Positions 1,620-49,334 of a DNA stretch of 64,000 bases are shown here, piece by piece. Position numbers and translations under genes: made by a program. Within the stretch, counting starts at the first letter, position 1, and the number at the start of each line of letters is the position of its first letter. The notes beneath the pieces are model-generated. The model did no database searches, had not been told where the DNA came from, and saw only the letters and a program-made list of their open reading frames with translations. The DNA comes from an uncultured Planctomycetia bacterium (GTDB lineage Bacteria; Omnitrophota; Gorgyraeia; Tantalellales; Tantalellaceae), in the NCBI GenBank assembly GCA_964565425.1, contig CAZMEZ010000003.1, positions 18,991 to 82,990 on the forward strand, written 5' to 3'.

Positions 1620-2743
1620 GCGCGGATGACGCTCATACGAGATCAAAAAGATACTCGGCGATAAAGACAGGGATCTTCGTGGCGGACCTTTTATTCTCAC
1701 TGGCCGCCCTCGTAGTTTTCCAGGCCTTCCTGTCACGTCCGGTTTCCGGGCTTGCCTTCGAAACTTACCGGAATTTTTACGCCGCGTGTTTTATCTACGC
1801 TTCTATTTTTCTCGCCTTCATGTATGCGGTATCTTTCCCGCTCAAGATCACCGGGTCGTTTTTTGTCGAACGCGCTTTCGGTCTTTCCAGGCAATCCTTT
1901 CTTGCGTGGCTCCGGGATGAGATGAAATCCATCCTGCTGTCGTTCCTGCTTTACATGTCCTGTATACAGGTCTTTTATCTGATCCTCAGGAACTTTCCCT
2001 CAACCTGGTGGCTTATTGCATCGGCCGGTTGGATCCTCTTTACGGTAGTGATGGCCAGGTTCCTGCCGATCTTGCTTATACCCCTCTTCTTTAAATATTC
2101 GCCGATACGGGACAGGGGGCTTAAGGAAAGGATAATGACGCTCGCGGAAAAGTCAGGAATAAAGCTGGTGGACGTCTGCCAGATAGATCTCAGCCGGAAG
2201 ACGGCGAAGGCCAACGCCGCTCTGGTCGGGCTTGGAGGGACCAGGAAAGTAATACTTGCCGACACATTGATCGAGAAGTTTGCTCCCGAAGAGATAGAAA
2301 GCGTTGTGGCGCACGAGTTCGCGCATTTCAAGTACCGGCATATATGGCAGCTTCTGTTTTTCTCCGCGGCTGTGACGCTGCTGGGATTTTTCGCGCTTTA
2401 TCGTGTTTCGGGAGCGATAGTATCCCTGACCGGTTCCGGGGGTTTGTCCGACCTTTACATTTTTCCCGCACTTATCCTTTCGGCGGCGGTCTTTGGCCTG
2501 GCGGTTTTACCCTTTCAGAACCTGTTTTCACGCGTTCTGGAACGGCAGTCCGACAGATTCGCTGTTGAGACCACGGGTTCTCCCCCGGCATTCATCGCGG
2601 TAATGAAAAAACTGGCTTCAATGAACCTGGCGGATACCGAACCGTCCGCGGTGAAAAAGATATTCCTGTACGATCATCCGCCCGTAGGAGAGAGGATACG
2701 GATGGGGGAGGAATACGAGAGAAGGATGAAGGTTGAAGGATAA
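1616..2743 (+). CDS. Integral-membrane M48-family Zn metalloprotease (Ste24/CAAX-protease-like)
   Basis: Multiple TM helices followed by the HExxH motif (VAHEFAHFKYRH) and a C-terminal soluble domain; ATGA overlap with the upstream HEAT-repeat gene. Confidence 0.7.
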   Translation: MSADDAHTRSKRYSAIKTGIFVADLLFSLAALVVFQAFLSRPVSGLAFETYRNFYAACFIYASIFLAFMYAVSFPLKITGSFFVERAFGLSRQSFLAWLRDEMKSILLSFLLYMSCIQVFYLILRNFPSTWWLIASAGWILFTVVMARFLPILLIPLFFKYSPIRDRGLKERIMTLAEKSGIKLVDVCQIDLSRKTAKANAALVGLGGTRKVILADTLIEKFAPEEIESVVAHEFAHFKYRHIWQLLFFSAAVTLLGFFALYRVSGAIVSLTGSGGLSDLYIFPALILSAAVFGLAVLPFQNLFSRVLERQSDRFAVETTGSPPAFIAVMKKLASMNLADTEPSAVKKIFLYDHPPVGERIRMGEEYERRMKVEG

Positions 2744-2745
2744 AG

Positions 2746-2836
2746 AAGTCACAAAGTCAAAAAGTCATAAAGTCGTAAGGCCTATGTTTATTTAAACGGT
2801 CCCTTTGTGACCTTGTGACTTTTGGACTTTATGACT
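2746..2836. repeat. Imperfect inverted repeat built from 8-nt words (GTCACAAA/GTCAAAAA/GTCATAAA ... TTTGTGAC/TTGTGACT/TTATGACT)
   Basis: Read directly from the sequence; sits between the M48 protease stop and the glycosylase start. Confidence 0.8.
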
Positions 2837-2866
2837 TATTCTAACTGGTTACTGCTAACTTTGGAC

Positions 2867-3532
2867 ATGGCGTCTAAACGGGAAAAGATAAAGAGGATCT
2901 ATGATCTCCTGAACGAACACTTCGGCGATCTCGGCTGGTGGCCGGCTGAATCTCCTTTCGAAGTAATAGTGGGCGCCGTGTTGACACAGAATACATCATG
3001 GGCGAACGTGGAGAAGGCCATAAAACGGCTCAAGGATGAAGGCTTGATGAGGCCTTCAAAAATGGCGGAAGCGGATACCGGCGTCTTGTCCCGCGCCATT
3101 CGGCCCGCGGGATATTTCCGGGTCAAGGCGCGCCGCCTTAAAGAGATGAGCCGTTTCATAATGAAAGAGTGCGGAGGAAAACTTGACAGGCTGGGGCGTG
3201 AAGACATATTATGTCTGAGGGAAAGGCTTCTCGGTGTAAATGGGGTGGGCCCCGAAACGGCGGATTCAATACTGGTCTACGCGCTGGGGAAACCTGTTTT
3301 CGTGGTCGATGCATACACGAAACGGGTCTTTTCCCGACACGGCATCACCGGGGAGGACGCGAGCTACGCGGATATCCAACGCATGGTGCATGATAATGTC
3401 CCGCTTAAAGTAAGAACGATGAACCAGTTCCATGCGCTCTTGGTGGAGACCGGCAAAAGGTATTGCAGGAAGAGATCGCCCAAATGCGGGGAATGCCCGC
3501 TCGGCGGCCTTAAGAGAAATAATTGCTTATAG
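2867..3532 (+). CDS. HhH-GPD superfamily base-excision DNA glycosylase (endonuclease III-like, C-terminal 4Cys Fe-S cluster)
   Basis: Helix-hairpin-helix plus Gly/Pro-rich loop with Asp (LLGVNGVGPETADSILVYALGKPVFVVDAYTKRV); C-terminal C-x6-C-x2-C-x9-C. The track ORF starts at a TTG at 2822 inside the upstream hairpin repeat, so in-frame ATG 2867 (MASKREK) is preferred. Confidence 0.7.
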   Translation: MASKREKIKRIYDLLNEHFGDLGWWPAESPFEVIVGAVLTQNTSWANVEKAIKRLKDEGLMRPSKMAEADTGVLSRAIRPAGYFRVKARRLKEMSRFIMKECGGKLDRLGREDILCLRERLLGVNGVGPETADSILVYALGKPVFVVDAYTKRVFSRHGITGEDASYADIQRMVHDNVPLKVRTMNQFHALLVETGKRYCRKRSPKCGECPLGGLKRNNCL

Positions 3533-3574
3533 CTTAAAGCTTACGGCTTAAAGCTGAAAAAAAGGGGGTGAAAC

Positions 3575-3865
3575 ATGATCTTTGGATTTTTCAGGAAGAA
3601 AAAGGAGCCGGAGGAAGGGGACCGTATCGGGAATGTAGTCCACTATTTTCCACATGTAAAAGCTGCCGTGATAGTTGTCGACAAGGGCAGTCTTGTCATC
3701 GGCGACCAGATACGGATCAAGGGACATACCACGGATTTTCAGCAGAAGATCGAGTCGATGCAGATAGAGCATGAATCCGTAGAAAAGGTCTCGAAGGGGC
3801 AGGAAGTGGCCATAAAGGTAAAAAAGAAAGCAAGAAAAACCGATAAGGTGTATCTTGTGAAATGA
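3575..3865 (+). CDS. Small translation-protein beta-barrel (EF-Tu domain-2-like) hypothetical protein
   Basis: 96 aa; pattern GxVxHYFPHVKAAVIVVDKGSLVIGDQIRIKG...QxIxSMQIEHESVEKVSKGQEVAIKV resembles the EF-Tu/IF2 domain II barrel; ATGA overlap with suhB. Confidence 0.45.
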   Translation: MIFGFFRKKKEPEEGDRIGNVVHYFPHVKAAVIVVDKGSLVIGDQIRIKGHTTDFQQKIESMQIEHESVEKVSKGQEVAIKVKKKARKTDKVYLVK

Positions 3866-4689
3866 GGTCGATGGAAGATATTCCGAGAATAAAGGAAGTA
3901 GCGGAGCAAATCGCCCGTGAGGCCGGGGATTACGTCCTGGGGCGCATGGGGCATCTCGAGGAGGTTGCCCGCAAAAGCGGCATGCATGACCTGGTGACGG
4001 ACGTGGACAAGACGTCCGAAAAGATGATCATAGACAGGATAAACCGGGAATTTCCCTCCCACTCGGTGCTGGCGGAGGAAAGCGGCGGACAGGCGCCGGG
4101 GGGAGTCATTAGCTGGATAGTCGACCCGCTTGACGGCACGACAAATTACACCCATTCATACCCCGTGTTTTGCGTTTCAATAGGGGTGCTTATCGACGGT
4201 CTCGTAAGGGTAGGCGTGATATATGATCCCTCGAGGGGAGAGACCTTCATCGCGGAAGAAGGGAAGGGCGCGCACCTCAACGGGCAAAAGATAAAAGTCG
4301 CCCCCTGTGGCGTTCTTTCCGACTCGCTTCTCGCGACAGGTTTCGCGTATGACCTCGAATGCAAGATAGCGAACCTTGAATATTTCAGGGTCATGCTTGA
4401 GAGCGCCCAGGCGGTTCGGCGCGCAGGGTCAGCGGCTCTGGACCTTTGTTACGTGGCCTGCGGAAGGTTTGACGGTTTCTGGGAGATGTGCCTGAACCCG
4501 TGGGATACCGCAGCCGGGCAACTCATGGTCCGGGAAGCGGGCGGAAGAGTGACCGGGCTTGACGGCGGTCCTTTCGATATCTTCAATAAAGGTATGATCG
4601 TTGCCACGAATGGAAATATTCATGACGAATTACTCGGTCGCTTAAATATCCGGCGATCCGAAGATAACCAAAAATACCCAACCGGATAA
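3862..4689 (+). CDS. suhB: Inositol monophosphatase family protein (SuhB-like)
   Basis: Canonical IMPase motifs WIVDPLDGTTNYTHSYPVFCVSIG and AGSAALDLCYVACGRFDGFWEMCLNPWDTAAG. Confidence 0.85.
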   Translation: MRSMEDIPRIKEVAEQIAREAGDYVLGRMGHLEEVARKSGMHDLVTDVDKTSEKMIIDRINREFPSHSVLAEESGGQAPGGVISWIVDPLDGTTNYTHSYPVFCVSIGVLIDGLVRVGVIYDPSRGETFIAEEGKGAHLNGQKIKVAPCGVLSDSLLATGFAYDLECKIANLEYFRVMLESAQAVRRAGSAALDLCYVACGRFDGFWEMCLNPWDTAAGQLMVREAGGRVTGLDGGPFDIFNKGMIVATNGNIHDELLGRLNIRRSEDNQKYPTG

Positions 4690-4812
4690 CCGCAATTAAA
4701 CGGCAACACCCCGCAAGTTAGTATATCAAAAGCCAGAAAATCACTTCAAAGCTTATTCAACTCAGCAGGAAAGACCACTTTTATACAAAAAATTAGTATT
4801 TAAAAAAGTTAG

Positions 4813-4841
4813 TTGACATTAGGCTTTATAGTGTGTAAAAT
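4813..4841 (+). promoter_or_regulatory. Near-consensus sigma70 promoter (TTGACA-17-TAAAAT)
   Basis: In the AT-rich spacer ~50 nt upstream of ORF 4892. Confidence 0.5.
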
Positions 4842-4891
4842 TGTAAATGTATTAAAAGCAAGATGAAATTACACAGCATGGGGGTTTAGGG

Positions 4892-5263
4892 ATGAAATAC
4901 AGGACCATTATCGAGTTGATCTGTGAGGCGTCCGACAAGGATGAGGCCTTCAATATCGCCGGAGAGTACCTGAAAGGCGAGGTGGATTTCGGCGTTGAAA
5001 TGGGCTGCAAAACGGCTTCATTGTGGGCACACCGGGCAAAGAAGTGCGTCGCTTACACCATAGCGGTCTTTTTCGTATTCTCCGCATTGATCGTAAGGGT
5101 AACACCGCTGGGAGGGGACGAGAAGATACGCGATTCGGTGCGTCCGGGGATCGGGAACACGTACACCATAATGCCCGAATTGAAGACCAAACACCGGTCG
5201 GATTTCCGGAAGGACTGGGAGAAGAAAAAACAGGAAGCGATCCTTGAATTTCTGAAGCATTAA
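4892..5263 (+). CDS. Hypothetical small membrane protein
   Basis: 123 aa with one central TM helix; near-consensus promoter upstream and hairpin terminator downstream. Confidence 0.45.
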   Translation: MKYRTIIELICEASDKDEAFNIAGEYLKGEVDFGVEMGCKTASLWAHRAKKCVAYTIAVFFVFSALIVRVTPLGGDEKIRDSVRPGIGNTYTIMPELKTKHRSDFRKDWEKKKQEAILEFLKH

Positions 5264-5293
5264 GATCTGACAAGATCCGGGTAGGGGATAAAA

Positions 5294-5328
5294 GGGGAGA
5301 GGCCGATAAGGTTTCTCCCCTTTATTTT
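5294..5328 (+). terminator. Intrinsic terminator after ORF 4892-5263
   Basis: GGGGAGA...UCUCCCC stem followed by UUUAUUUU. Confidence 0.6.
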
Positions 5329-5445
5329 GGGCCCAAGCGGCAGATAGAGTTGTCAATTACTAATATATTATGTATACTATCAACAGGTTATACAGTTAGG
5401 GGAAGTTCGGTATTTTCGTGGCATATTATATTTAAGGTTGGGTCC

Positions 5446-5874
5446 GTGGAAGAGAAAAGCGAAAAAAAACACAGGATACTCGTCGTTGATGATCAGGTCG
5501 GCATCGTGTCCTTTTTGTATGATTTCTTCATGATAAAAGGGTACGACGTGCTTCAGGCGACTAGCGCTAAAAAGGCGATCGGTCTTGTCGATAAAGAGAG
5601 ACCGGAGCTGGTACTGCTTGATATCAGGCTCGGTTGGGGCAAGAACGGCATAGAGACACTGAAGGATATAAAAGAGATAGCACCCGCCACGCGCGTAATA
5701 ATGATGACAAGCGTAGCCGACGAGGACGTGATAGAGGAAGCTTTCAGCCTTGGGGCCGATGATTACATAATAAAACCCTTCAGCCTAAAATATCTCGAGA
5801 AAGTCGTAATGCTGAAGGTCCTTAACCTGGAGATCGAACGGCTTGGAGAAGGCAAAGGTGAAGGTTCACAGTAA
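5446..5874 (+). CDS. Stand-alone response-regulator receiver domain (CheY-like)
   Basis: HRILVVDDQ...LLDIRLGWGKNGIETL...IMMTSVADEDVIEEAFSLGADDYIIKPFSL shows the phospho-acceptor Asp and receiver fold; start placed at in-frame GTG 5446 (uncertain). Confidence 0.65.
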   Translation: MEEKSEKKHRILVVDDQVGIVSFLYDFFMIKGYDVLQATSAKKAIGLVDKERPELVLLDIRLGWGKNGIETLKDIKEIAPATRVIMMTSVADEDVIEEAFSLGADDYIIKPFSLKYLEKVVMLKVLNLEIERLGEGKGEGSQ

Positions 5875-5875
5875 G

Positions 5876-6367
5876 ATGGTGTTCAAGGGACGCCTTCTCA
5901 AGGTATTCAAATCACGAAAGACCCTGCCTAACGGAAGAAAAGCCGACATCGAAGAGGTCGAACATCCGGGAGCCGCGCTTATCATTCCCTTTTTAAGAGG
6001 AAAGATCGTCTTCATACGACAGTACCGCCCGGTAATCGGCAAGTATATCTGGGAGTTGCCTGCGGGAACGCTTGATGAGGGGGAAACCCCGTACGCTTGC
6101 GCGAAGAGGGAAGTCGTCGAGGAAACGGGTTACGGGGTCAGGAATCTGCGAAAGCTGGGATATATATACACGACACCGGGTTTTTGCAACGAAAAGATAC
6201 ACATATTCAGGGCTGATTGCGAGACGAAAAATTCGACGAACCGGGAATGTGACGAGATAATGGATGTGGCGGTCCTGGATAGGCGGAGGATAAGGCAACT
6301 TTTCGCGTCCGGCAAGATAAACGATTCAAAGACGATCGCCGCGCTTAGTTTTGCGGGCATTATATAA
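5876..6367 (+). CDS. NUDIX hydrolase (ADP-ribose pyrophosphatase-like)
   Basis: Nudix box GTLDEGETPYACAKREVVEETGY; ATG 2 nt after the receiver gene stop. Confidence 0.8.
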   Translation: MVFKGRLLKVFKSRKTLPNGRKADIEEVEHPGAALIIPFLRGKIVFIRQYRPVIGKYIWELPAGTLDEGETPYACAKREVVEETGYGVRNLRKLGYIYTTPGFCNEKIHIFRADCETKNSTNRECDEIMDVAVLDRRRIRQLFASGKINDSKTIAALSFAGII

Positions 6368-6456
6368 GCACATGCACGCTATGCCGGTATCCTAATTTGC
6401 TTGACATTCGTATTTATATCGGATATACTTCAGGGCAAAGGTCAAAGGGGGTGGAA

Positions 6457-6774
6457 ATGAAACGATTTTTAATATTCTTATTTATATTCGCGTTGTTGTT
6501 TAATGTGAACGCTTTTGCATCGACGAACAAACCGCTTAAAAACCTCGGGCAAGGGCTTGATGACATGTTCTACGGAAGCGTTGAGGTCCCCGACAGCATA
6601 GATGAAACAGGCACCAAAGGTTCCCCCGCTTATGCTAGCTGTACCGGGAAGACCAATGACGATATGGGCAGAGGGATAGCCAGGTTCGTAGGAGGCCTCT
6701 GGCGCGTAGCCACTTTCTGGTATCCGGAAGAAGACGCTTCCGCGTCGGTTCCGGTGTCCAGATCGGCCAAGTAA
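6457..6774 (+). CDS. Small secreted hypothetical protein
   Basis: RBS AAAGGGGGTGG before ATG 6457; signal peptide MKRFLIFLFIFALLFNVNAFA; followed by a strong intrinsic terminator. Confidence 0.5.
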   Translation: MKRFLIFLFIFALLFNVNAFASTNKPLKNLGQGLDDMFYGSVEVPDSIDETGTKGSPAYASCTGKTNDDMGRGIARFVGGLWRVATFWYPEEDASASVPVSRSAK

Positions 6775-6796
6775 GAGCGCTTTTAACTCTCAAAAA

Positions 6797-6829
6797 ACCC
6801 CGTTCAATAAAACTGAACGGGGTTTTTTT
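6797..6829. terminator. Bidirectional intrinsic terminator
   Basis: AAAAAA-CCCCGUUCA-AUAAAAC-UGAACGGGG-UUUUUUU between convergent genes. Confidence 0.85.
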
Positions 6830-6898
6830 GTTTAATGATTTGGTTATTGATTGGTTCGGCGGTTAGTGAGGACATTCTAAATAACCAGGAACCAGTAA

Positions 6899-7441
6899 TC
6901 AATAACTATTCCAACTCAGCACTTCGCTCCTGTCCTTGAGGGTCTTTTCCTGCGGGTCTTTTCCCCCCGGATACCCCATGGCGATAACGAGCTCGATCTT
7001 TTTGCCTCGCGGGACGGAGAGTATCTTACGCAACCTGTTTTCGCCGAACCATCCCAGTATACAGGTGCCGATTCCGAGTTCCTCGGCCCTCAGGACGAGA
7101 TGGGCGCAGGCGATACCTATGTCGATCTTCCGAAAGTCGGTTTTCCGGAGTTTGCCGCCCGCCCAGGCGGGGAACTTCATGTTTTCCGCGATCACTATGA
7201 TGAAAGCGGCGGCACCGAGCGCGAACGAATTCATTCTATATGTCCCGGAAAGAAAGCCTTCCGACAGTTCTTTTTTTTGTTCGGGGCCATCGACGATGAT
7301 GAATTTCCATGGCTGGGAATTGCAGGCGGAAGGGGCGTAAAGCGCGGCTTCTACGCATGACTCGAGGTCTTTACGGCTTATCGTCCGCTCGTCGTAAAAG
7401 CGGATGCTCCTTCTTTTTTTCGCGAGGTCCAGCAGCGACAT
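6899..7441 (-). CDS. Nitroreductase family protein
   Basis: N-terminal RRSIRFYDERTISRKDLESCVEAALYAPSACNSQPWKFIIVD is typical of FMN nitroreductases. Confidence 0.8.
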   Translation of the reverse strand: MSLLDLAKKRRSIRFYDERTISRKDLESCVEAALYAPSACNSQPWKFIIVDGPEQKKELSEGFLSGTYRMNSFALGAAAFIIVIAENMKFPAWAGGKLRKTDFRKIDIGIACAHLVLRAEELGIGTCILGWFGENRLRKILSVPRGKKIELVIAMGYPGGKDPQEKTLKDRSEVLSWNSY

Positions 7442-7492
7442 GACGTTCTCCTGTGCTTGTTAACATCGGTCGATTCGATTATAATATAACAC

Positions 7493-8365
7493 ATGAAAGA
7501 CACCCGCGCTATAAGCATTTCTCTTATACTTCTTCTTATCGGGTTGCAAGGCTGCGCGAATACCGGCACAGTGAAACGGATGCGTCCCTCCGCCGGTATC
7601 TCGGAAGAAAAAGCCGTGAAAGAGATATCCGCAAAGGGCCGTTTTCACAGGAACAAGAGGCTGGTTTACCTGATAGCGTGGAACAACATCCCGGTCGGAC
7701 GTATAATTACCGAGGTCGGCGACGTAGAGAGATACGGCGAGTATGACGTTTTCGTTATCAGGTTGGTGACCGAATCGAATAAATTTCTGTCCAAAATATA
7801 CCGGGTCGAGGACACCTATACATCTTACGTGGACGCTGACGCCATCACGAGCAGGCGCTACGAAGCGGACAGGAAAGAGGGGAACTACAGAAAACATGTT
7901 ATAGTTGAGTACGACTTTGGCAAGCAGGAGGCGACGTACACCAATCTGACGGACGGGTCGGTAAAAAAATGCGTGATCAAAAAAGACGTCCAGGACCCGT
8001 TGAGCGCTATGTGCTATTTCATGACCCTGCCCATAAGGATCGGAGAGAAACTGGGCTTAACGATCAATCTGAACGAGAAGAATTACGATCTCTTCGCCAG
8101 GGTGGAGGATATAGAAGTTGTAACATTGGCGGGTATCGGGACTTTTCCGGCGTTCAGGATACGGCCGTACGCGGAATTGAAAGGCGCGCGCGTAAAAAAA
8201 GGAAGAGGGTGGATGTATTTTTCGGCGGATGCGGACCGGTATCCCCTGTACGGGGTGGTCCGCATACCTTTCGGCCGGGTTACCGCCACGTTGAGGTCGA
8301 TAGAAGATATTCAAGGCGCAAGGCGGTGTCCGTCATCAGATAGGCGCAAGGCTCAAGGAGAGTGA
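7493..8365 (+). CDS. Lipoprotein, DUF3108-like
   Basis: Lipobox LLIGLQGC after a signal peptide; the last ~17 codons lie inside a dispersed repeat element, so the true C-terminus/stop is uncertain. Confidence 0.55.
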   Translation: MKDTRAISISLILLLIGLQGCANTGTVKRMRPSAGISEEKAVKEISAKGRFHRNKRLVYLIAWNNIPVGRIITEVGDVERYGEYDVFVIRLVTESNKFLSKIYRVEDTYTSYVDADAITSRRYEADRKEGNYRKHVIVEYDFGKQEATYTNLTDGSVKKCVIKKDVQDPLSAMCYFMTLPIRIGEKLGLTINLNEKNYDLFARVEDIEVVTLAGIGTFPAFRIRPYAELKGARVKKGRGWMYFSADADRYPLYGVVRIPFGRVTATLRSIEDIQGARRCPSSDRRKAQGE

Positions 8366-8790
8366 TAACTAATACGTAATAGGTTAAGGCTAGAGGCTCG
8401 AGGCGAGAGGCTAGAGGACGGGGGAAGCAATTTCGATGTTGGTAAGTGCGTAAGTTACCAGTTACCAGAAACCAGTTGCCGGAAGAGTGGTTCGAGGTTC
8501 GCGGAGTGTTCGCATAGCGCATAGCGTGCGGGGCGGTTTCTTCTGTCATTGCGAGGATGCCCTGAAAGGGCAGACGCGGCAATCCCTGATTTCAGCTGTA
8601 CGCTGTAAGTTTTAAGCTATAAGATCGTTATAACCCTTTCCAGCTTTAGCGGGCATCTTAAAGCTGATTTTGAATTTTTAATTATATTTTTAAATTTTAT
8701 CTTTTAACTTTTAAATTTTAACCGGCGTCCCGACCGCCCTGGTAACTGGTAACTGCTAACTTACCCAAAACCCACAGGGCACGGAATAAA
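8313..8790. repeat. Composite intergenic repeat element made of drifting 7-nt words (copy A)
   Basis: Shares the modules GCGCAAGGCGGTGTCnGTCATCAGA, TAATACGTAATA, GAGTGTTCGCATAGCGCAT and AGCTTAAAGCT with the element at 41186-41447. Also contains TAACTGGTAACTGCTAAC, which is shared with 2841-2860. Confidence 0.75.
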
Positions 8791-9597
8791 ATGCTCAAAA
8801 GAAAGAAACTTATATTCACGGCGTTCATAATGCTGGCTCCTTTCCTGTCGGGATGGATCTTCACCGTCAACCAGGCCACGGACGAGGAAGAAATGATCTT
8901 TATCCCCCCGGCCAAAGAAAGGAGCATGGGAAGAAAACTGCATAAGAAGATCCTCGATAAGTTCGACCTGCCGGTGGACCCGCTAATGCAGGAAAGGGTC
9001 TCGCGTATAGGTGAAAAACTTGCCCGGGCCGGCGACAGGAAAGACATAGTATACCGTTTTACCGTGCTTGATAATGAAAAGGACAATTGCTTTAACGCTT
9101 TCGCCGCGCCGGGTGGTTATATTTATATATTTGACGATCTGGCGGAAGCCGTAGAGACCGACGATAACATCGCCGCGGTCCTCGCCCATGAGATGGGCCA
9201 CATTGAAGCAAAGCACGCCGTCAAGAGGATGCAGGGTAACGTCGCTATCGCGGCTCTTATGCTGGTAAGCGCGCAGATGAAAAGCGAGAAGGGCACGCGC
9301 GGGAAGGCGGCATGCGCCATCACCGAGCTCATGGGCGCTTATTCGCGTCAGGATGAGAAGCAGGCGGATGAGCTCTCGGTAAAATATCTCAAGGACGCCG
9401 GGTACGACCCGCGGGCCGCCGTGAAAGTGATAGAAAAGCTTAAAGCGCTGCGTAAGAAAGCGCCCCGCGCGCGGTATTCCTATTACAGGAGCCATCCTTA
9501 TCTTTCGGAGAGGGCGTCATATCTTGAAAAATACGCGAGGGGACATGCGAGCTTCGATTCATATATCAATCTTGTGACGGATAAGGGCGGGATGTGA
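8791..9597 (+). CDS. Secreted M48-family metallopeptidase
   Basis: Signal peptide; HExxH (AVLAHEMGHIEAKHAVKRM). Confidence 0.75.
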   Translation: MLKRKKLIFTAFIMLAPFLSGWIFTVNQATDEEEMIFIPPAKERSMGRKLHKKILDKFDLPVDPLMQERVSRIGEKLARAGDRKDIVYRFTVLDNEKDNCFNAFAAPGGYIYIFDDLAEAVETDDNIAAVLAHEMGHIEAKHAVKRMQGNVAIAALMLVSAQMKSEKGTRGKAACAITELMGAYSRQDEKQADELSVKYLKDAGYDPRAAVKVIEKLKALRKKAPRARYSYYRSHPYLSERASYLEKYARGHASFDSYINLVTDKGGM

Positions 9598-9672
9598 GGC
9601 GGTCTTTACGTTTGGGTCTTTTTCATTTATAATACAACAAACCATTTGTTTCCGGGGAAGAGGAGGTGCGGG

Positions 9673-10149
9673 GTGAAAAAAATAGCGATAGTATATTATT
9701 CCAGGACCGGGAATACCGAGGCCATGGCCCGCCTGGTGGAGGAAGGGGCGAAGACCGAGCCGGACGTGCAGGCAGATACAGTGAACGTCGATTCGTTCCC
9801 GGCAAAGAAGGCGCTGGAATACGACGGCTTGATAGTCGGCTCTCCGACGTATTACGGTTCAATGGCATATCAGGTAAAGAAATTTTTCGACGATTCCGTG
9901 GCTTTTCACGGCAAACTTTCGGGCAAGGTGGGAGCCGCTTTTTCTTCGGCGGCGAATATCGGCGGCGGCAACGAAACGACGATAGCGGGCATATTGAACG
10001 CGATGCTGGTACACGGGATGATAATCCGCGGCGACCACAACGGTGATCATTACGGCCCCGTGTCGATAGGGGCCCCCGATGAACGTGTCGAGAAGCAATG
10101 CCGTTTACTCGGCAAAAAAGTGGCAGCGATGGCGAAGAAACTGACGTAA
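9673..10149 (+). CDS. Flavodoxin-like fold FMN reductase/flavodoxin family protein
   Basis: KKIAIVYYSRTGNTEAMA...GSPTYYGSMA flavodoxin signature; RBS AGGAGG 7 nt before GTG 9673. Confidence 0.75.
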   Translation: MKKIAIVYYSRTGNTEAMARLVEEGAKTEPDVQADTVNVDSFPAKKALEYDGLIVGSPTYYGSMAYQVKKFFDDSVAFHGKLSGKVGAAFSSAANIGGGNETTIAGILNAMLVHGMIIRGDHNGDHYGPVSIGAPDERVEKQCRLLGKKVAAMAKKLT

Positions 10150-10203
10150 CATATCCGCGGGCCGCAGATCACAGGCATCGGATTTCAACGGAAAGGAAGA
10201 ACA

Positions 10204-11526
10204 TTGAGCAAGACATTTGTTCTTGATACCAACGTTATATTGCATAACCCCAATTCGATAATCTCGTTCAGCGACAACACCGTTCTTCTCCCGATAGAGG
10301 TGCTCGAAGAGCTGGACAGGTTCAAGAGGGACCACGACGAAAAGGGGCGTAACGCCAGGATCGCCATAAGGATGCTTGACGAGATGCGCAAGAGAGGCGA
10401 ACCCGGCGAAGGTTACCCCATGGATAACGGCGGGGTGTTGAAGATCTCGACGGGCCTGGATTACGATATCCTGGCCGAAGTGGGGTTATCAAAAGACCTG
10501 ACGGATAACAGGATCCTGCTTACTGCCCATATGTTGAAAGCCAAAGGCGAGAACGTTATTTTCGTTTCCAAGGACATCAACGCGAGGATCAAGGCCGACG
10601 CGCTGGGCGTACCGAGCGTGGATTTTGAGAAACACAAGGTTGATTTCGAGCATCTCTACGGCGGATGGCACGCGGTAGAAGTGGCGAGGAGCGAAATAGA
10701 CGCCTTTTACAAGGAAAAGAAGTTCCCGGTCAAGAAGGACGAGTTTTATCCGAACGAGTTCGCTCTTCTGGTGGACAAGGAAGACCCCAAACATACGGCT
10801 ATAGGGCGGTATAAGGAGGAATTCGGGATACTGATGCCGCTCATATTCAACAAAACCCATGTAATGTCCATACGGCCGCGTAACAAAGAACAGGCGATGG
10901 CTATTGAGCTTCTTTTGAATAACGATATAAGTCTTGTGACCCTGATGGGGCCCGCCGGAACGGGGAAGACGCTTTTGGCGATCGCGGCCGGTCTTCAGAA
11001 GGCGGTCAAGGATAAATCCTATACCGGGCTTCTTATATCGAGGCCGGTCATGCCGCTGGGCAGGGATATCGGATATCTTCCGGGGACCAAGGAGGAAAAG
11101 CTCGAGAGCTGGATGGGGCCGATATACGACAACCTTGAGTACATATTCAACGCCGAAAAAAAAGACAAGGACTCGAAGGTTAATGTCAAGACGCAGATCG
11201 AGAAATACATAAAAGAGGAGATAATAGAGCTTGAAGCCATGACTTTCATGAGAGGGCGAAGTATACCCAGTCGCTTCATAATAATCGACGAAGCGCAAAA
11301 CCTCACTCCGCATGAGGTAAAAACGGTCATAAGCCGCGCGGGCAATTACACAAAAATGGTCCTTACGGGTGATCCTTACCAGATAGACAACCCGTATCTC
11401 GATTCGTCCAGCAACGGTTTGGCGTATTGCGTCGATAAAATGAAAGGGCAGAAGGCTTTCGGCCATGTGACTTTCGCTAAGAGCGAGAGGAGTTCTCTGG
11501 CTTCGCTGGCCGCTGAACTGTTATAG
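10204..11526 (+). CDS. PhoH-like ATPase with N-terminal PIN domain (YlaK-type)
   Basis: N-terminal PIN (FVLDTNVILHNP); Walker A LMGPAGTGKTLLAIAAG; PhoH C-terminal region; TTG start with RBS GGAAAGGAAG. Confidence 0.85.
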   Translation: MSKTFVLDTNVILHNPNSIISFSDNTVLLPIEVLEELDRFKRDHDEKGRNARIAIRMLDEMRKRGEPGEGYPMDNGGVLKISTGLDYDILAEVGLSKDLTDNRILLTAHMLKAKGENVIFVSKDINARIKADALGVPSVDFEKHKVDFEHLYGGWHAVEVARSEIDAFYKEKKFPVKKDEFYPNEFALLVDKEDPKHTAIGRYKEEFGILMPLIFNKTHVMSIRPRNKEQAMAIELLLNNDISLVTLMGPAGTGKTLLAIAAGLQKAVKDKSYTGLLISRPVMPLGRDIGYLPGTKEEKLESWMGPIYDNLEYIFNAEKKDKDSKVNVKTQIEKYIKEEIIELEAMTFMRGRSIPSRFIIIDEAQNLTPHEVKTVISRAGNYTKMVLTGDPYQIDNPYLDSSSNGLAYCVDKMKGQKAFGHVTFAKSERSSLASLAAELL

Positions 11527-11534
11527 ATGACGGT

Positions 11535-11701
11535 ATGAACATAAACATACGCTACATAAAAGAGACCGATGTTTTCGAGGTACAGGCCGTCGAAAAAAAA
11601 CTGCGATCACATTTTCTGCTGTCGCGAGCGGAGCTGAACAAGCTGAGGACGATGCTCGAAAAGGCCCTGCTCGACAGCAAGAGCCCCAAAGGTAAAAAAT
11701 A
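11535..11701 (+). CDS. Possible 55-aa ORF (MNINIRYIKETDVFEVQAVEKKLRSHFLLSRAELNKLRTMLEKALLDSKSPKGKK)
   Basis: Unannotated short ORF in the spacer after the PhoH-PIN gene; no RBS; speculative. Confidence 0.2.
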
Positions 11702-11739
11702 AGGATGAACGAACGGGGCAGGCCGGGTTTTTAGAGGGG

Positions 11740-12234
11740 ATGCTTATGTGTAAAATACGTAACATCAAAAAAAAATTGATCGCTCTGTTATGTTTCCTTA
11801 TTCCGGGCCTTTTTTTGGCGGGGCCGGGTTTTGCCGCCGGGAAGGACCGGGGCACCCGCACCCGCGAGAAAAAAGTCAAATGGGTCAAAACAAAAACAGG
11901 GCTTAACAGCCTTATCCAGCTCTCCAAGGACCGCAATACGATGGAGAAAGAATACGCGCAGGAGACCCGGAACTATGAGAAGCTCAGGGATGCCGTCGAA
12001 GGGGAGTATCTGAAGGAAGGCATGCCGGTCGCCGCGGTCGAAAGAAAGTTCGGGAAGCCCGTAGTAGCGTTTCCCGGAGAGGGCGGCGGCACGACAAATC
12101 GGGTTTATAAGCCCGGGGACGAGTCTTTCCTGGACGGAGGCAAAAAGATATACCTTATCTTTGATGACAATGGCAGCCTGGTCAAATGGCAGAACATAGA
12201 TAAGGCAGGGGCGGAACCGGGAGCCGGGGAATAG
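11740..12234 (+). CDS. Secreted hypothetical protein
   Basis: Signal peptide (LIALLCFLIPGLFLAGPGFAAG); no recognisable domain. Confidence 0.5.
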   Translation: MLMCKIRNIKKKLIALLCFLIPGLFLAGPGFAAGKDRGTRTREKKVKWVKTKTGLNSLIQLSKDRNTMEKEYAQETRNYEKLRDAVEGEYLKEGMPVAAVERKFGKPVVAFPGEGGGTTNRVYKPGDESFLDGGKKIYLIFDDNGSLVKWQNIDKAGAEPGAGE

Positions 12235-12242
12235 CATGGCGG

Positions 12243-13334
12243 TTATTCCGCCATTGCGTAGGTATGGCCTTTATCGTATCCCTTATAATGCGCTTCCAGT
12301 ATCTCCTGGGCCGGCTTGTTCTGCGGCGTGAACTGACGATTATAAGTTCCTCCCGCGTAGACGTTAGTATCCCATTTCCACCAATAGACGCCCGCGAGCC
12401 AGCGTTCACCCCAGACCGTTTCGAAAAAAGCCCTGTAGCATTTGGCCTGCATTTCGGGGTCGGCGTTGCCTTCCAGTCCGTTCTGCCAGGGCATGTAAGG
12501 GGCGTGGGAAGCGCTCGGATATCCTATTTCGGTGAAGATTATAGGCTTATTTATTTTCTTTTGCCATATTTCCAGGTCTGACTTCCATTTTTCCCAGCCT
12601 TTTTTAAGGTCGTCAACGGTCGGGTCGGATTTGTAGGTCAGAGGGAAATAGGCATCGATCCCGACGTAGTCAAGCTCGTCCCAGAATCTTATGTTCTTGA
12701 AGTTGTCCCAGTTCGCCGCGTAAACGAGCTTTCCCGGATATATTTTACGGACCTTGGCTATCAGTTCTCTCCATTCGGCTTCCTTTTGCGTGGTAAAGGA
12801 GAGTTCGGTACCGATGCAAAAAAGTTCAACGTCGAGATCTCTGGCCAAACGCGCATATTTCAATATGAATTTGCCGTACGCGTCGAACCATTTCTTCCAG
12901 TCGTTTTCGCATGCGAAACCTATGTCCGCGCGCCAATATGTGCCGTCATATTTGTCAATGAGGTCGATATGCGGTTTCAGCGCGACTTTAATGCCGAGTT
13001 TATGGGCCGTTATGATGACGTGACGCAGGCTTCTCGAGCTTGGGCTCTTGTCCGTGGCTTTTATTTCTGTCGAATTATATTTTTCCTGATAATGGGTCGC
13101 GCATACCGAGATATATTCAACGCCGAGGGAGGCGAGTTTTTTAAGGGATTCATCGGAAAATTCAGAGGCAAAACGGTCCTTGTCCCAGGTAACGTAGCAT
13201 ACCCCCTTTTGCAACGGCAAAAATGCGGTTTCGGAATGAAGATCGCAGGGGGGGAATAGGAGCGACATAATTAAAACCGTTGCCAACAAGACGCTCGATA
13301 TACCGTTCTGTTCCTTATCACGGCGCATTGACAT
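12243..13334 (-). CDS. Secreted TIM-barrel glycoside hydrolase (GH5/GH113-like)
   Basis: Signal peptide after MSMRRDKEQ; candidate catalytic glutamates in CIGTELS (acid/base) and IIFTEIGYPS (nucleophile). Start placed at ATG 13334 with RBS GGAGG 6 nt upstream, because the longer track start at 13433 runs into the leader terminator. Confidence 0.65.
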   Translation of the reverse strand: MSMRRDKEQNGISSVLLATVLIMSLLFPPCDLHSETAFLPLQKGVCYVTWDKDRFASEFSDESLKKLASLGVEYISVCATHYQEKYNSTEIKATDKSPSSRSLRHVIITAHKLGIKVALKPHIDLIDKYDGTYWRADIGFACENDWKKWFDAYGKFILKYARLARDLDVELFCIGTELSFTTQKEAEWRELIAKVRKIYPGKLVYAANWDNFKNIRFWDELDYVGIDAYFPLTYKSDPTVDDLKKGWEKWKSDLEIWQKKINKPIIFTEIGYPSASHAPYMPWQNGLEGNADPEMQAKCYRAFFETVWGERWLAGVYWWKWDTNVYAGGTYNRQFTPQNKPAQEILEAHYKGYDKGHTYAMAE

Positions 13335-13345
13335 TTTATCCTCCG

Positions 13346-13394
13346 GAAAAATAAAAAACCCTATTCGATAAAGGTCGCTCCATATCGAATAGGG
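13346..13394 (-). terminator. Intrinsic terminator 13 nt upstream of the hydrolase RBS (putative riboswitch expression platform)
   Basis: On the minus strand, an 11-bp perfect stem CCCUAUUCGAU...AUCGAAUAGGG is followed by UUUUUUAUUUUU. Confidence 0.6.
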
Positions 13395-13435
13395 CTGCAA
13401 GAATCCGGCAATAAATGCCAACATACATTGCATAA

Positions 13436-13532
13436 ATTCGGCGGTCCGACTGCCATGCCCATCGTGAACGAAGAGGGGTTAGGCTCGTGACTTTGCAGTC
13501 CTATTCTTTCGAATAGTTTGCCCCGTTAGAGA
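13436..13532 (-). ncRNA. c-di-GMP-I (GEMM) riboswitch-like aptamer in the 5' leader of the glycoside hydrolase gene
   Basis: The minus-strand RNA reads ...CUAACGGGGCAAACUAUUCGAAAGAAUAGGACUGCAAAGUCACGAGCCUAACCCCUCUUCGUUCACG... This matches the Vibrio Vc2 GEMM core (GGGCAAACCAUUCGAAAGAGUGGGACGCAAAGCCUCCGGCCUAAACC): a GAAA-capped hairpin, the GGAC(U)GCAAAG junction, and a second hairpin with a CCUAA receptor-like loop. Confidence 0.6.
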
Positions 13533-13759
13533 TAGTGTCCCTAACGTGGCAAGCCCCATTGTCCTTAACCCCGATAGAAAAGATTTTCTAACGGGGTATA
13601 ACGGGGTTTGCCTTTATCGATCATGCGAAAATCAGGGTTTAAAAGAACTTTCTCGCCTACAATATCGATTTTAATGATAGAAAAATAAAAAGCAAGATAC
13701 TAACATTTAACTTTTTTATATTTAACGCCTAAATATATATAAACAATATGATATTTTGT

Positions 13760-16118: not shown

Positions 16119-17880
<1,762 letters not shown>

Positions 17881-17883
<3 letters not shown>

Positions 17884-17960
17884 ATTGTGAATAGTGAATT
17901 GTGAATAGTGAGTTGTGGGCCGAACAATGCGATTAACGACTTACGATTCACCATTCACGT
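17881..17960. repeat. GTGAATT/GTGAATA heptamer-stutter inverted repeat (family F1)
   Basis: gtgaattgtgaatagtgaattgtgaatagtgagttgtgg ... cgacttacgattcaccattcacg; homologous to 49091-49161. Confidence 0.8.
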
Positions 17961-20681: not shown

Positions 20682-20773
20682 TGATGTGTGATGGGTAATG
20701 TGTGATGAGTCGCAGGTTGTGTGCGCATAACGCCATAGAATAACCCATCACCCCTCACTCGTCACCCATCACT
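20682..20773. repeat. GTGATGG/CCATCAC heptamer-stutter inverted repeat
   Basis: gtgatgtgtgatgggtaatgtgtgatgagtcg ... acccatcacccctcactcgtcacccatcac, directly after the metW stop. Confidence 0.8.
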
Positions 20774-23940: not shown

Positions 23941-24175
23941 TGTTCAAGGCTAAAGGCGAAAGAGAGCGCCAGCGCGCCAGGTAAAATATCAAAAATCAAA
24001 AAGCAAAGTTCAAATATATAGATCAAAATCCAAGATACTTATTTTTGCTTTTTGATATGAATTGTTGAATTTTAACCCGCATTACTATCACGTAATCTGC
24101 GATCATCTGTGTTTAACGAACAACGATAAACGAATAACGCACAACGCACTGCGATAATACGATAAAAAGGAGCCA
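23941..24175. repeat. Spacer with an ATCAAAA stutter inverted repeat and a CGAACAACGATAAACGAATAACGCACAACG stutter
   Basis: atcaaaaatcaaaaagcaaag...tttgctttttgat followed by cgaacaacgataaacgaataacgcacaacgcac. Confidence 0.7.
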
Positions 24176-38640: not shown

Positions 38641-39701
38641 AGGAGTACTGGTTCGGGTTTAACGTTTTTCGTTACATAACGTTCAGGGCCAGCATGGCGG
38701 CCGTGATGTCGTTCGTTGTCTGTCTGATATTGGGGCCGTTCATCGTAAAGTTGCTGAAGAGCCTGGACGCCGGCCTGTACGTGTGGAAAAAGCACGCCGA
38801 CAGCCTGTATGACATCCATAAGCACAAAGAGGGAACGCCTACAATGGGGGGGCTTTTGATAATCGTGGCGGTTCTCGTTTCGTCGCTTTTATGGTGCCGC
38901 CTGGATAACGACTACGTGTTATTGGCGCTGGGCGGTATGGTATGGCTCGGCGTGATCGGCTTCATGGACGACATTATCAAAATACGGACCAAGAGCGCCA
39001 TGGGGATACGGGCCATGACAAAGCTTGGCGGACAGGTGCTGCTTGCTCTGATAGTGGGCCTTTTCGTGATAAACAATAAAGCCATAGGGGCTGACCTGTA
39101 TCTTCCGTTCGTAAAGAACGCGGTTGTCAACCTCGGTGTTTTTTATGTGCTTTTTGTGCTGCTCGTGATAGTGGGGACAAGTAACGCCGTAAATCTCACC
39201 GATGGTCTTGACGGGCTGGCTATAGGTTGTGTGGTGTTCATTACGCTTACATACGCGGTCATTAGCTACGTTACGGGCAATGCGGTGATAAGCCGCTATC
39301 TCCAGGTTTTTTATCTTCCCGGTTCGGGCGAACTTACCGTTTTTTGCGCGGCGCTTACCGGGGCCGCGCTCGGTTTCCTTTGGTTCAATAGCCATCCCGC
39401 CACCATCTTCATGGGGGATACCGGGTCTTTGGCGCTGGGTGGAGCGATCGCTATCGTAAGCGTGCTTATCAAGAAAGAAATACTTCTTTTGCTGGCCGGG
39501 GGAGTGCTCGTGGTCGAAGCGCTTTCGGTGATACTCCAGGTAGCGTCGTTCAAGTTAAGAAAAAAGCGCCTTTTTCTTATGTCGCCCATACATCATCATT
39601 TCCAGATCAAAGGGATGTACGAGTCGAAGATCACGGTGCGTTTTTGGATAATCGCGGCGATCCTCGCGCTCCTCAGTATGACCACGTTGAAGGTGAGGTA
39701 A
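38613..39701 (+). CDS. mraY: Phospho-N-acetylmuramoyl-pentapeptide transferase
   Basis: N-terminus YWFGFNVFRYITFRA; NAVNLTDGLDGLA and DTGSLALGG motifs. Confidence 0.9.
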   Translation: MFYHLLYPLKEYWFGFNVFRYITFRASMAAVMSFVVCLILGPFIVKLLKSLDAGLYVWKKHADSLYDIHKHKEGTPTMGGLLIIVAVLVSSLLWCRLDNDYVLLALGGMVWLGVIGFMDDIIKIRTKSAMGIRAMTKLGGQVLLALIVGLFVINNKAIGADLYLPFVKNAVVNLGVFYVLFVLLVIVGTSNAVNLTDGLDGLAIGCVVFITLTYAVISYVTGNAVISRYLQVFYLPGSGELTVFCAALTGAALGFLWFNSHPATIFMGDTGSLALGGAIAIVSVLIKKEILLLLAGGVLVVEALSVILQVASFKLRKKRLFLMSPIHHHFQIKGMYESKITVRFWIIAAILALLSMTTLKVR

Positions 39702-39847
39702 GCCCGGGGATTGATGGGTGGGTTTCGTCGATCGTCGTTCGAATCTCGGGCCATCGATTAAGTAATATAAAGTGTACACGAAATCCGGACCCCGGACAAC
39801 GAACGACGGTTTACGGTTCACGAACATGTATCCAAATTCAGTTCACT
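39702..39847. repeat. CGTCGAT/CGAACGA stutter spacer between mraY and murD (family F3)
   Basis: gtttcgtcgatcgtcgttcgaatctcgg ... gacaacgaacgacggtttacggttcacgaac. Confidence 0.7.
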
Positions 39848-41185: not shown

Positions 41186-41447
41186 GCGCAAGGCGGTGTC
41201 AGTCATCAGACATCAGCGTGGAGCTGGGCGAGGAGTGTTCGCATAGCGCATGGCGCAAAGGGCATAGCGGGTTAAGTGATAAGTAATACGTAATATGTGA
41301 TACGTGGTGTAGGGGGCGCGGGAGCTGTATCTTGTATCTAGTATCTGGTTGACGTGTTTCTTGACGAACAACGAAAAACGAGCGACGAACAACGACTTTG
41401 CCCGATCTATCGGGCACTTATAGCTTAAAGCTTACATCTGACGAAAA
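41186..41447. repeat. Composite intergenic repeat element (copy B), homologous in a mosaic way to 8313-8790
   Basis: Begins GCGCAAGGCGGTGTCAGTCATCAGA right after the murD stop. Contains GAGTGTTCGCATAGCGCATGGCG, GTGATAAGTAATACGTAATATGTGATACG, GACGAACAACGAAAAACGAGCGACGAACAACGAC and CTTATAGCTTAAAGCTTA. Confidence 0.75.
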
Positions 41448-42557: not shown

Positions 42558-42609
42558 ACCGTGACCCGTTGGTTGGATCACTATTCACGGATCACGGTAT
42601 AAAAATACT
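42558..42609. repeat. CCGTGAA/CCGTAAT/CCGTAAA/CCGTGAC heptamer stutter with an inverted partner (ftsW-murG spacer)
   Basis: aaccgtgaaccgtaatccgtaaaccgtgacccg ... cacggatcacgg. Confidence 0.7.
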
Positions 42610-43713: not shown

Positions 43714-43772
43714 GTCGTGGCAACACGCGGGCCTTTACAGCTTATAACTTAAAACTTACAACTTACAGCTTG
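43714..43772. repeat. AGCTTAT/AACTTAA/AACTTAC stutter (family F4, murG-murC spacer)
   Basis: cagcttataacttaaaacttacaacttacagcttg. Confidence 0.7.
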
Positions 43773-46056: not shown

Positions 46057-46059
46057 AGG

Positions 46060-49081: not shown

Positions 49082-49090
49082 ACATAAAAC

Positions 49091-49323: not shown

Positions 49324-49334
49324 AAGGGATCATT

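Follow-up and report, generated by a model that had tools for sequence, protein, structure and literature searches.

Gene junctions of an Omnitrophota genome as probable sites of a lineage-specific heptanucleotide repeat system

Tandem heptanucleotide repeats have been known from cyanobacterial genomes since 1990 and later from those of Beggiatoaceae and Xanthomonas, and their origin and role are unsettled. The short tandemly repeated repetitive (STRR) sequences are the tandem heptanucleotide repeats of heterocystous and filamentous cyanobacteria, where they are used in fingerprinting. In Nostoc, nested small dispersed repeats (SDR) of 21-27 nt reportedly often lie within heptameric tandem repeats, and their recent mobility is said to have been deduced from presence and absence. 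Miniature inverted-repeat transposable elements (MITE) of the Correia/NEMIS, ERIC and BOX types are intergenic, co-transcribed and hairpin-forming, BOX being modular with one module of variable copy number; they have defined terminal inverted repeats and a fixed full-length consensus, and the Correia elements are accompanied by a TA target duplication. Heptamer repeats of the GGGNATC type occur in Xanthomonas and Nostoc. Intergenic direct repeats of TAACTGA, in sets of 2-6 copies that end a few nucleotides ahead of start codons, are known from marine Beggiatoaceae, cyanobacteria and some Bacteroidetes (MacGregor 2015, PMC4679880); in the Beggiatoaceae one unit is dominant and related heptamers are rare (PMC4679880). 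According to Mrazek et al. (2007), as reported in PMC4679880, heptanucleotides are the most abundant class of long simple sequence repeats (SSR), and slipped-strand mispairing was proposed for them. The function of heptamer repeats is still speculative (Nostoc recF/recO preprint). Here we describe the repeats in a stretch of 64,000 nt (hereafter the window; positions 18,991 to 82,990 of contig CAZMEZ010000003.1, assembly GCA_964565425.1) from an uncultured bacterium of the phylum Omnitrophota, and in particular two of its spacers, A (8313-8790), at the end of a DUF3108 lipoprotein gene, and B (41186-41447), between murD and ftsW. A sequence-only reading had taken them for two mosaic copies of a larger composite repeat element. 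In our view they are probably the largest patches of lineage-specific, interspersed and imperfect 7-nt tandem repeats which colonise the gene junctions of this genome.

The tandem arrays of the window have a period of seven only. Our own scan found 31 strict period-7 arrays, compared with 0-2 at the periods 5, 6, 8, 9, 10 and 11. At a looser threshold there were 54 period-7 arrays and 3-18 at other periods, and Tandem Repeats Finder gave about 45 period-7 rows. The arrays are confined to the junctions between genes: when the gene ends were refined by orthology, they covered 13.4% of the non-coding bases and 0.11% of the coding ones. The match rate of the non-coding DNA at lag 7 is 0.376 and it decays over lags 14, 21 and 28 (0.335, 0.302 and 0.275, respectively; baseline near 0.265), which indicates that the arrays are short and that their units drift. 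There are 37 spacers with a length of 30 nt or more, and 21 of them carry arrays. The median gap is 5 nt from the stop codon to the array and 12 nt from the array to the start that follows. The array-free spacers are mostly longer and AT-rich and may be promoter regions. The units vary from array to array (AGGCTAG, AGTTACC, CGCATAG, GTGAATT, GTGTCAT, CGAACGA, AAAGATC and others, dozens in all), a typical unit having a constant core of 4-5 nt and two or three variable positions. An array comprises 3-5 units and at most 15, and its family is found at several junctions and in both orientations. Clustering of the heptamers (at most one mismatch, rotations and strands included) yielded 57 edges compared with a random mean of 29 and was too permissive, so that block-level BLAST was relied on instead. 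The flanking genes are intact and collinear with those of the relatives.

By all the class-level features compared, the system of the window is one of heptanucleotide tandem repeats, an assignment to the class and to no named STRR family. It shares with the STRR and long-SSR systems tandem 7-nt units, several families per genome, a dispersed, near-exclusively intergenic and often intra-operon location and a phylogenetically sporadic occurrence. It differs from them in its phylum and in its short, strongly degenerate arrays, many of which are hairpin-forming inverted pairs. No tandem CCCCAGT, TTGGTCA, CAACAGT, GGGAATC, GGGGACT, TTTTGAA or TAACTGA was found in the window. The likeness to the TAACTGA repeats lies in sporadic occurrence by lineage and perhaps in heptamer direct repeats close upstream of start codons: TAACTGG-TAACTGC-TAACT stands 28 nt and TAACTGG-TTACTGC-TAACT (2842-2861) 7 nt upstream of starts. 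In contrast to the TAACTGA systems, TAACTG occurs in the window at three intergenic positions, in two arrays, besides dozens of other units and in both orientations. Modules of 20-31 nt, which are lineage-specific, present in 2-5 copies each in the DNA compared and in one case (M1, see below) in phase within a CAAGGCG array, may resemble SDR in their described size and context. REP, BIME and REPIN sequences (PMC3116915, PMC2817692) are likewise short palindromic junction repeats within operons, co-transcribed, lineage-specific, arranged in mosaics of both orientations and comparable in their working to intercistronic hairpins. However, each REP is one conserved palindrome, 20-40 nt long and with no internal periodicity of 7 nt, whereas the hairpin arms described here are heptamer arrays. 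REP sequences are also tied to RAYT (IS200/IS605-like) transposases, and there was no transposase among the window proteins scanned. For spacers A and B, unlike MITE, no terminal inverted repeats, target-site duplications or collinear full-length copies were found, and an inner inverted pair is present in A only; the defined terminal repeats, TA duplication and fixed consensus of the Correia, ERIC and BOX elements were not found here. Our literature search returned no paper linking Omnitrophota with such repeats. What we report is thus a known kind of repeat system in a new lineage, and it demonstrates no new principle.

A short-word BLAST of all spacers against all others detected four modules (M1-M4) of 20-27 nt which are common to A and B and 95-96% identical (Table 1). 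The longest A-B match with at most one mismatch measures 25 nt within the limits given above and 27 nt with the flank, while 100 dinucleotide shuffles of A against B gave longest matches with a mean of 11.1 and a maximum of 15. The shared modules are therefore genuine copies, far beyond chance, and near-identical modules had indeed been noted in the sequence-only reading. Their order is M1-M3-M2-M4rc in A (rc, reverse complement) and M1-M2-M3-M4 in B, so that the different module order recorded earlier was also right, and the 7-mer stutter of which both mosaics were said to consist can be read directly in A as CAAGGCG CAAGGCG GTGTCCG TCATCAG ATAGGCG CAAGGCT CAAGGAG, with M1 in phase inside this CAAGGCG array. 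The forward sequence AGCTTAAAGCT quoted for copy A is not there, since A holds M4 in the inverted form only. A third piece of the repeat, placed at 2841-2860, does exist; its coordinates are 2842-2861 and it agrees with 8743-8762 at 19 of 20 positions. The notion of a two-copy composite element was not supported: the common sequence totals only about 92 nt out of 478 nt (A) and 262 nt (B), no common termini were found, and parts of the two spacers recur at other junctions, M4 and the TAACTGG piece individually and further parts by matches at 3526, 43741, 14906, 24116, 61243 and 50746. It was set aside, and A and B are therefore regarded as the two largest patches of the wider system. The inner inverted pair of A is missing from B. 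Spacer A also contains a non-periodic hairpin, CATTGCGAGG...GCAATC, which may resemble a small palindromic repeat of many genomes of uncultured bacteria; its motif GTCATTGCGAG is found at a non-orthologous junction of a sister lineage (locus L021, 1652-1662, minus strand).

The Rfam covariance models matched neither spacer at E-values up to 1, and Pfam did not match the antisense open reading frames 8280-8582 and 41199-41417. A scan for M1 in a species-representative genome collection, in which the source genome is not included, gave nine matches, none of them in Omnitrophota. Two matches in Moorena seem to lie at the beginning of an opposite-strand gene and are apparently due to chance. The Moorena loci L003, L004, L009 and L011, obtained as chance pattern matches, have period-7-only arrays too, in agreement with the heptamer repeats already described from cyanobacteria, and are taken as a positive control. 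M1 was not found in the viral scans, which yielded only unrelated, perfect GTGTCAT microsatellites; the viral contigs L026 and L027 likewise have period-7-only arrays, namely perfect GTGTCAT/ACACATG microsatellites.

Many arrays of the window are paired in inverted orientation and form hairpins of 25-35 bp with z scores of -2.3 to -7.4 relative to dinucleotide shuffles (for positions of the inverted pairs, see Table 1). Single mismatches interrupt these hairpins roughly once in seven bases, where the heptamer is variable. The hairpin families, whose arms are heptamer arrays, are represented by 2-3 copies per lineage in the DNA compared, and each family holds one orientation relative to the genes.

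The repeats have overwritten ends of genes. In the DUF3108 lipoprotein encoded at 7493-8365 (Pfam, E = 4e-27) the lipobox is LQGC. Its 112 homologues, mostly named Candidatus Omnitrophota, are mostly 271-273 amino acids long. The C-terminal tail QGARRCPSSDRRKAQGE is missing from all 15 aligned orthologues, ten of which end at ...EDI/EEI and five with short unrelated tails. At the position of the stop, the sister locus L001 reads GAC ATA TAG and the window GAT ATT CAA GGC GCA AGG; the distance to the next gene is 48 nt in L001 and 425 nt in the window. These comparisons support the assignment of the last 17 codons to spacer sequence which would have replaced the ancestral stop, just as the sequence-only reading had proposed. 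The DUF3108 orthologue of Candidatus Makaraimicrobium thalassicum (P0020) has a repetitive C-terminal extension of its own (GSTPGVATPGVATPGVEQVEQERQRRG), and tandem repeats may thus overwrite this gene end in another Omnitrophota lineage too.

Other genes are remodelled in similar ways. Copy B had been described as beginning 1 nt after the murD stop, whereas its M1 in fact starts within that stop codon (T/AG). MurD is two residues shorter than its L019 orthologue in the window, and six residues were gained in the sister lineage. FtsW has seven additional C-terminal residues, which come from the first units of the ACCGTGA array, and the PF1765-like gene shows an apparent gain of about five residues. 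The ancestral ATGA overlap of the large M48 protease gene and the HhH-GPD gene is ATAA in the window and is followed by a 125-nt insert and a new ATG at 2869. The TTG or GTG starts of the longest open reading frames of murD, aroA, the HhH-GPD gene and the PF1765-like gene traverse repeat arrays (39644-39847, 57179-57226, 2822-2868 and 50459-50494, respectively). The starts of murD (39848) and the PF1765-like gene (about 50495) were set by orthology, and those of aroA (57227) and the HhH-GPD gene (2869) are the first downstream ATG. For annotation this means that neither the gene ends as called nor long TTG/GTG starts can be trusted in such genomes (DUF3108, FtsW, MurD, HhH-GPD, AroA) and that genes of this genome would come out too long if annotated automatically. 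The 13-mer GACGAAAAATGAG, identical at 41440-41452 and 61269-61281, lies across the ftsW start codon in the first case and that of the PBP2 gene in the second. At both starts it is the end of a CGAACGA-type array, and arrays may supply the translation initiation region there.

Judged by protein names, the window belongs to Omnitrophota. Three loci of a sister lineage were compared with it: L001 (window 2169-13642), L024 (31481-47773) and L021 (47628-58970). The four-fold degenerate sites of the sister match those of the window with an identity of 0.72-0.74; L001, the closest relative, is collinear with window 2169-13642 at 86% DNA identity. More distant Omnitrophota loci (L012-L016 and L018-L020) have about 55-85% protein identity to the window for the genes of the dcw region. 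The closest relative of FtsW is 96% identical, and a metagenome scan with FtsW gave three loci, the best with 69% identity. The window has 31 strict period-7 arrays in 64 kb (4.8 per 10 kb), L021 has 10 in 11.5 kb, L024 four in 16.3 kb and L001 two in 10.9 kb; among the distant relatives, there were none in L012-L016 and L018 and one each in L019 and L020. The cell-division genes of L019 and L020 overlap or lie 1-28 nt apart, with a murD–ftsW gap of 1 nt, and the same junction in L024 measures 154 nt and differs in content from spacer B. Summed over 13 junctions of the dcw region, the window has 1261 nt, the sister 1293 nt and L019 382 nt; in L019 the ftsA–proC spacer contributes 397 nt and the remaining junctions come to about zero in total. 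The gain is lineage-specific. Because the junctions of the relatives are tight and the sister has the same array families at many of the same junctions, the gain of the filler is dated, on the comparison of these loci, to the ancestor which the window and the sister share, and it took place at junctions formerly almost without DNA. Assemblies made independently from at least four samples (L001/L002, L021/L022/L023 and L024/L025) contain orthologous arrays and hairpins too.

The series of outgroup, sister and window is a clean before-and-after natural experiment on repeats invading compact operons: the close outgroups have overlapping, translationally coupled cell-division genes, while heptamer filler of 50-260 nt separates the genes at these junctions in the window and the sister. 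This contrast opens the questions of which genes were gained with the repeats, how lost start/stop coupling is tolerated in essential operons and whether the conserved hairpins act as RNA processing sites.

The filler has changed by whole units since the two lineages separated, with indels of 14 nt at the yggT–PF1765 junction and 7 nt at PF1765–PNP, and with 15 units in the window and four in the sister at murB–ddl (about 70 nt). The unit at murB–ddl (GAGATCG/AAAGATC) matches the terminal codons of murB itself, codons which the outgroup L019 has as well. In L001 an AAGGAT array crosses the M48/HhH-GPD junction, and a duplicated GAAGGAT in L016 foreshadows it. Blocks have also been copied between junctions: modules of 20-31 nt, some of them non-periodic, turn up in near-identical form and in either orientation at junctions which are not orthologous, and the set present is not the same in the two lineages. 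Thus L021 1473-1503, located at ftsA–proC and not at PF1765–PNP, is the reverse complement of window 50809-50839 (29/31), and the sister-specific hairpin module GTAGGGGTTYGATTTATCAAACCCGAAGTTG is found at three junctions (L001 6015-6045; L024 9897-9927 and, on the minus strand, 275-305). M1-M3 are absent from all sister loci, and at mraY–murD the GTGTnAT hairpin is found in the sister only. The filler was replaced wholesale at DUF3108–M48, murD–ftsW, ftsW–murG and the flanks of ftsA–proC. The junctions orthologous to A and B are occupied by GTAGGGGTTYGATTTATCAAACCCGAAGTTG (L001 6015; L024 9897), so that this pair of junctions shares filler in both lineages, with different sequences.

Two junction elements are more conserved than the four-fold degenerate sites (0.735), the rluD–aroA hairpin with an identity of 0.91 (P = 4e-5) and the PF1765–PNP spacer with 0.92 (P = 5e-9), both estimates coming from short low-complexity alignments of two lineages only; the other junctions are at the neutral level (0.74-0.79). 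The conservation above the synonymous rate at these two junctions suggests that some copies may have been co-opted. The 60-nt core 49172-49231 of the ftsA–proC spacer, between two hairpins, is 90% identical in the sister, its flanking hairpins being replaced. A TTGACA hexamer lies within this core, a possible promoter of the proC operon; the consensus scan of the plus strand called no promoter there.

The explanations we weighed differ in what they take the spacers to be. If A and B were two decayed and rearranged copies of one discrete, MITE-type composite mobile element that had landed in murD and the lipoprotein gene at their 3' ends, one would understand the four common modules, the position of M1, which opens both spacers exactly at the end of the upstream gene, the lack of spacer A in L001 and the inner inverted pair of A (8448-8467/8743-8763, 19/20). 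This is distinctly unlikely, as so little sequence is common, the order is unlike and one module is inverted, B has no inverted pair, a target-site duplication is seen at neither locus, M4, the TAACTGG piece and other arrays of A and B recur separately at other junctions, and the filler of the sister differs at both junctions. The arrays might instead be primarily functional cis elements, that is, tandem sites at which one or several proteins that bind nucleic acids would each cover about 7 nt (candidates are RNA binders of the cold-shock or S1 type and a nucleoid protein), spread and maintained by selection as a regulatory network, as proposed for the Beggiatoaceae TAACTGA repeats. The short distance from the arrays to start codons (median 12 nt), the conservation of two junction elements above four-fold sites and the constant orientation of each hairpin family relative to the genes speak for such a role, and the idea has been put forward for other heptamer repeats (MacGregor 2015, PMC4679880; Nostoc recF/recO preprint). 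But there are dozens of units and no single motif, the families are used in both orientations, many junctions were replaced wholesale between the sisters with neutral identity (0.74-0.79), the same essential operons of the relatives manage without arrays, and a binding protein has been identified in no system (Nostoc recF/recO preprint). We consider this role unlikely.

Slippage of SSR in situ, by which the arrays would arise independently at each junction and resemble one another by convergence, would account for the changes by whole units between lineages and for the two arrays seeded from local gene-end sequence, and it is in line with the abundance of heptanucleotides among long SSR (Mrazek et al. 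2007, as reported in PMC4679880). As the sole process it is very improbable, because near-identical non-array blocks of 21-31 nt occur at unrelated junctions (M1, the sister hairpin module, ATATTCGAACCCCGAAC... and others), the shared non-periodic blocks are absent from the outgroups and hairpin elements of about 70 nt exist in several copies. The source is a metagenomic contig and low-complexity repeats are prone to misassembly; nevertheless, an assembly or chimaera artefact is hardly credible, since other samples, assembled independently, yielded orthologous arrays and hairpins and the flanking genes are intact and collinear.

The reading we prefer, that A and B are the largest patches of lineage-specific heptamer repeats colonising the junctions, is probable as an overall explanation; we are much more confident that they are part of a lineage-specific heptamer repeat system, and less confident of any specific function. 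Arrays would be born from local seeds and would grow and shrink by slipped-strand mispairing in 7-nt steps. Blocks could then be copied between junctions by a trans-acting mobilising function or a small non-autonomous mobile element, by ectopic recombination or by template switching between similar arrays, and purifying selection would remove insertions within genes, so that only the junction copies survive. As the repeats are located inside housekeeping operons (dcw, mre and lsp-lgt-rluD-aroA), they should be co-transcribed. If they act at all, they would most likely do so as intercistronic RNA hairpins or spacers which replace the ancestral start/stop coupling, with an effect on mRNA processing, stability or translation initiation.

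Several results weigh against this reading or parts of it. Within the 64 kb, M1, M2 and M3 are found only at the two flagged loci. No common termini or defined element ends were found for A and B, and the search for target-site duplications, suggested for the two spacers in the sequence-only reading and carried out there and at the junctions compared with the sister loci, revealed none that could be recognised, because whole spacers differ between the lineages. No mobilising enzyme was found among the window genes, those annotated by Pfam or synteny being all housekeeping. A and B, which are chains of direct arrays, do not surpass shuffled sequence in folding (z -0.8 and -0.4), and the sense and antisense folding energies are alike, without asymmetry. 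Five copies of the GTGTnAT hairpin show one compensatory pair and a covariation term of +0.84, values that carry no information, as all copies agree at the paired core positions. The narrow basis of the conservation estimates, mentioned above, belongs here as well.

It is doubtful, and we give it little chance, that a dedicated machine gained by horizontal transfer, rather than ordinary slippage of a polymerase, underlies the heptamer period, the burst in one sub-lineage and the copied blocks of 20-30 nt. Such a machine could be a transposase or integrase leaving 7-bp duplications by cycles of insertion and excision, or a polymerase or primase stuttering in 7-nt steps. If true, it might also account for the scattered occurrence of heptamer-repeat genomes among cyanobacteria, Beggiatoaceae and some Bacteroidetes.

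Table 1. Repeat features of the window (positions in the window; strand in brackets; z scores relative to dinucleotide shuffles)
Feature	Position	Remarks
Long hairpin (AAGTCAnn / TTTGTGAC arms, period 8) and TAACTGGTTACTGCTAACTT module	2744-2868 (+)	inverted pair; between large M48 protease gene and HhH-GPD gene; z -5.7
GCTTAAA-family array	3522-3559 (+)	after HhH-GPD gene; position kept in sister L001
Spacer A	8313-8790 (+)	mosaic of period-7 arrays (CAAGGCG, AGGCTAG, AGTTACC, CGCATAG, AGCTGTA, ATTTTTA, CTGGTAA) and non-periodic inserts
DUF3108 C-terminal tail QGARRCPSSDRRKAQGE	8313-8362 (+), stop 8363-8365	17 codons, repeat-derived; conserved coding sequence up to 8312
M1, AGGCGCAAGGCGGTGTCCGTCATCAGA	copy A 8314-8340 (+), copy B 41184-41210	27 nt, 96%
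M3, AGTGATAACTAATACGTAATA	copy A 8361-8381 (+), copy B 41275-41295	21 nt, 95%
Inner inverted pair, left arm GTAAGTTACCAGTTACCAG	8448-8467 (+)	partner 8743-8763; 19/20 positions match; TRF (Tandem Repeats Finder) arrays AGTTACC, CTGGTAA
M2, GGAGTGTTCGCATAGCGCATAGCG	copy A 8503-8526 (+), copy B 41232-41255	24 nt, 96%
Non-periodic hairpin CATTGCGAGG...GCAATC	8547-8584 (+)	within spacer A
M4 family, CTTATAGCTTAAAGCTTAC...	8590-8623 (-)	inverted within spacer A; reverse-complement matches 3526-3559 (34 nt, 88%), 43741-43770 (30 nt, 90%), 41417-41436
M4	copy B 41417-41436; copy A 8604-8623, reverse complement only	20 nt, 95%
CTGG-TAACTGG-TAACTGC-TAACT array	8739-8762 (+)	right arm of inner pair; 28 nt upstream of M48 peptidase start codon
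GTGAATT / ACGATTC hairpin	17875-17958 (+)	inverted pair; z -3.7
GTGATGT / CCATCAC hairpin	20682-20772 (+)	inverted pair; z -3.3
AACGAAC array	24113-24149 (+)	family common to 41364-41395
TTCGTCG array	39724-39749 (+)	in mraY–murD spacer: 146 nt here, 8 nt in L019
Spacer B (murD–ftsW)	41184-41447 (+)	M1, M2, M3, M4; TGTATCT and ACGAACA arrays
ACCGTGA / TCACGG hairpin	42537-42605 (+)	inverted pair; overlaps FtsW C-terminal extension
CTTAnAA array	43735-43771 (+)	murG–murC; kept in sister L024
AAAGATC array, 15 units	46048-46151 (+)	murB–ddl; 4 units in sister
GTGTnAT / ACAC hairpin	47952-48018 (+)	inverted pair; ftsQ–ftsA; z -6.0
Hairpins GTGAATT/ACGATTC (49087-49161) and AGGTTTT/AACCT (49239-49324)	49087-49324 (+)	inverted pairs; z -7.2 and -7.4
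GTCACCC array	50461-50486 (+)	yggT–PF1765-like gene; 14-nt indel relative to sister
AAGTGAT array and inverted TTCGTCG/CGAACnA pair	50720-50839 (+)	PF1765-like gene–PNP; 92% identical to sister; 7-nt and 33-nt indels
TCGTCGT/TCGCAGT array	51740-51780 (+)	PNP–ileS
Second GTGTnAT / ACAC hairpin	57146-57216 (+)	inverted pair; rluD–aroA; 91% identical to sister; z -4.2
TTTGTGA array	60656-60704 (+)	mreC–next gene; family also at ftsW–murG in sister L024
CGGTTnG and CGAACGA arrays	61203-61274 (+)	stop 2 nt short of PBP2 start codon

The gene downstream of spacer A encodes a small M48 peptidase (8791-9597) and is shared by the window and L001 only; in L015, L016 and L018 a flavodoxin gene follows the DUF3108 gene directly. 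The only Rfam match of the window above the gathering score, unrelated to the spacers, is a cyclic di-GMP-I riboswitch (RF01051, 62 bits, E = 9.5e-10) at 13437-13532 on the minus strand, in the leader of a GH113-family glycoside hydrolase gene (12243-13433, minus strand).

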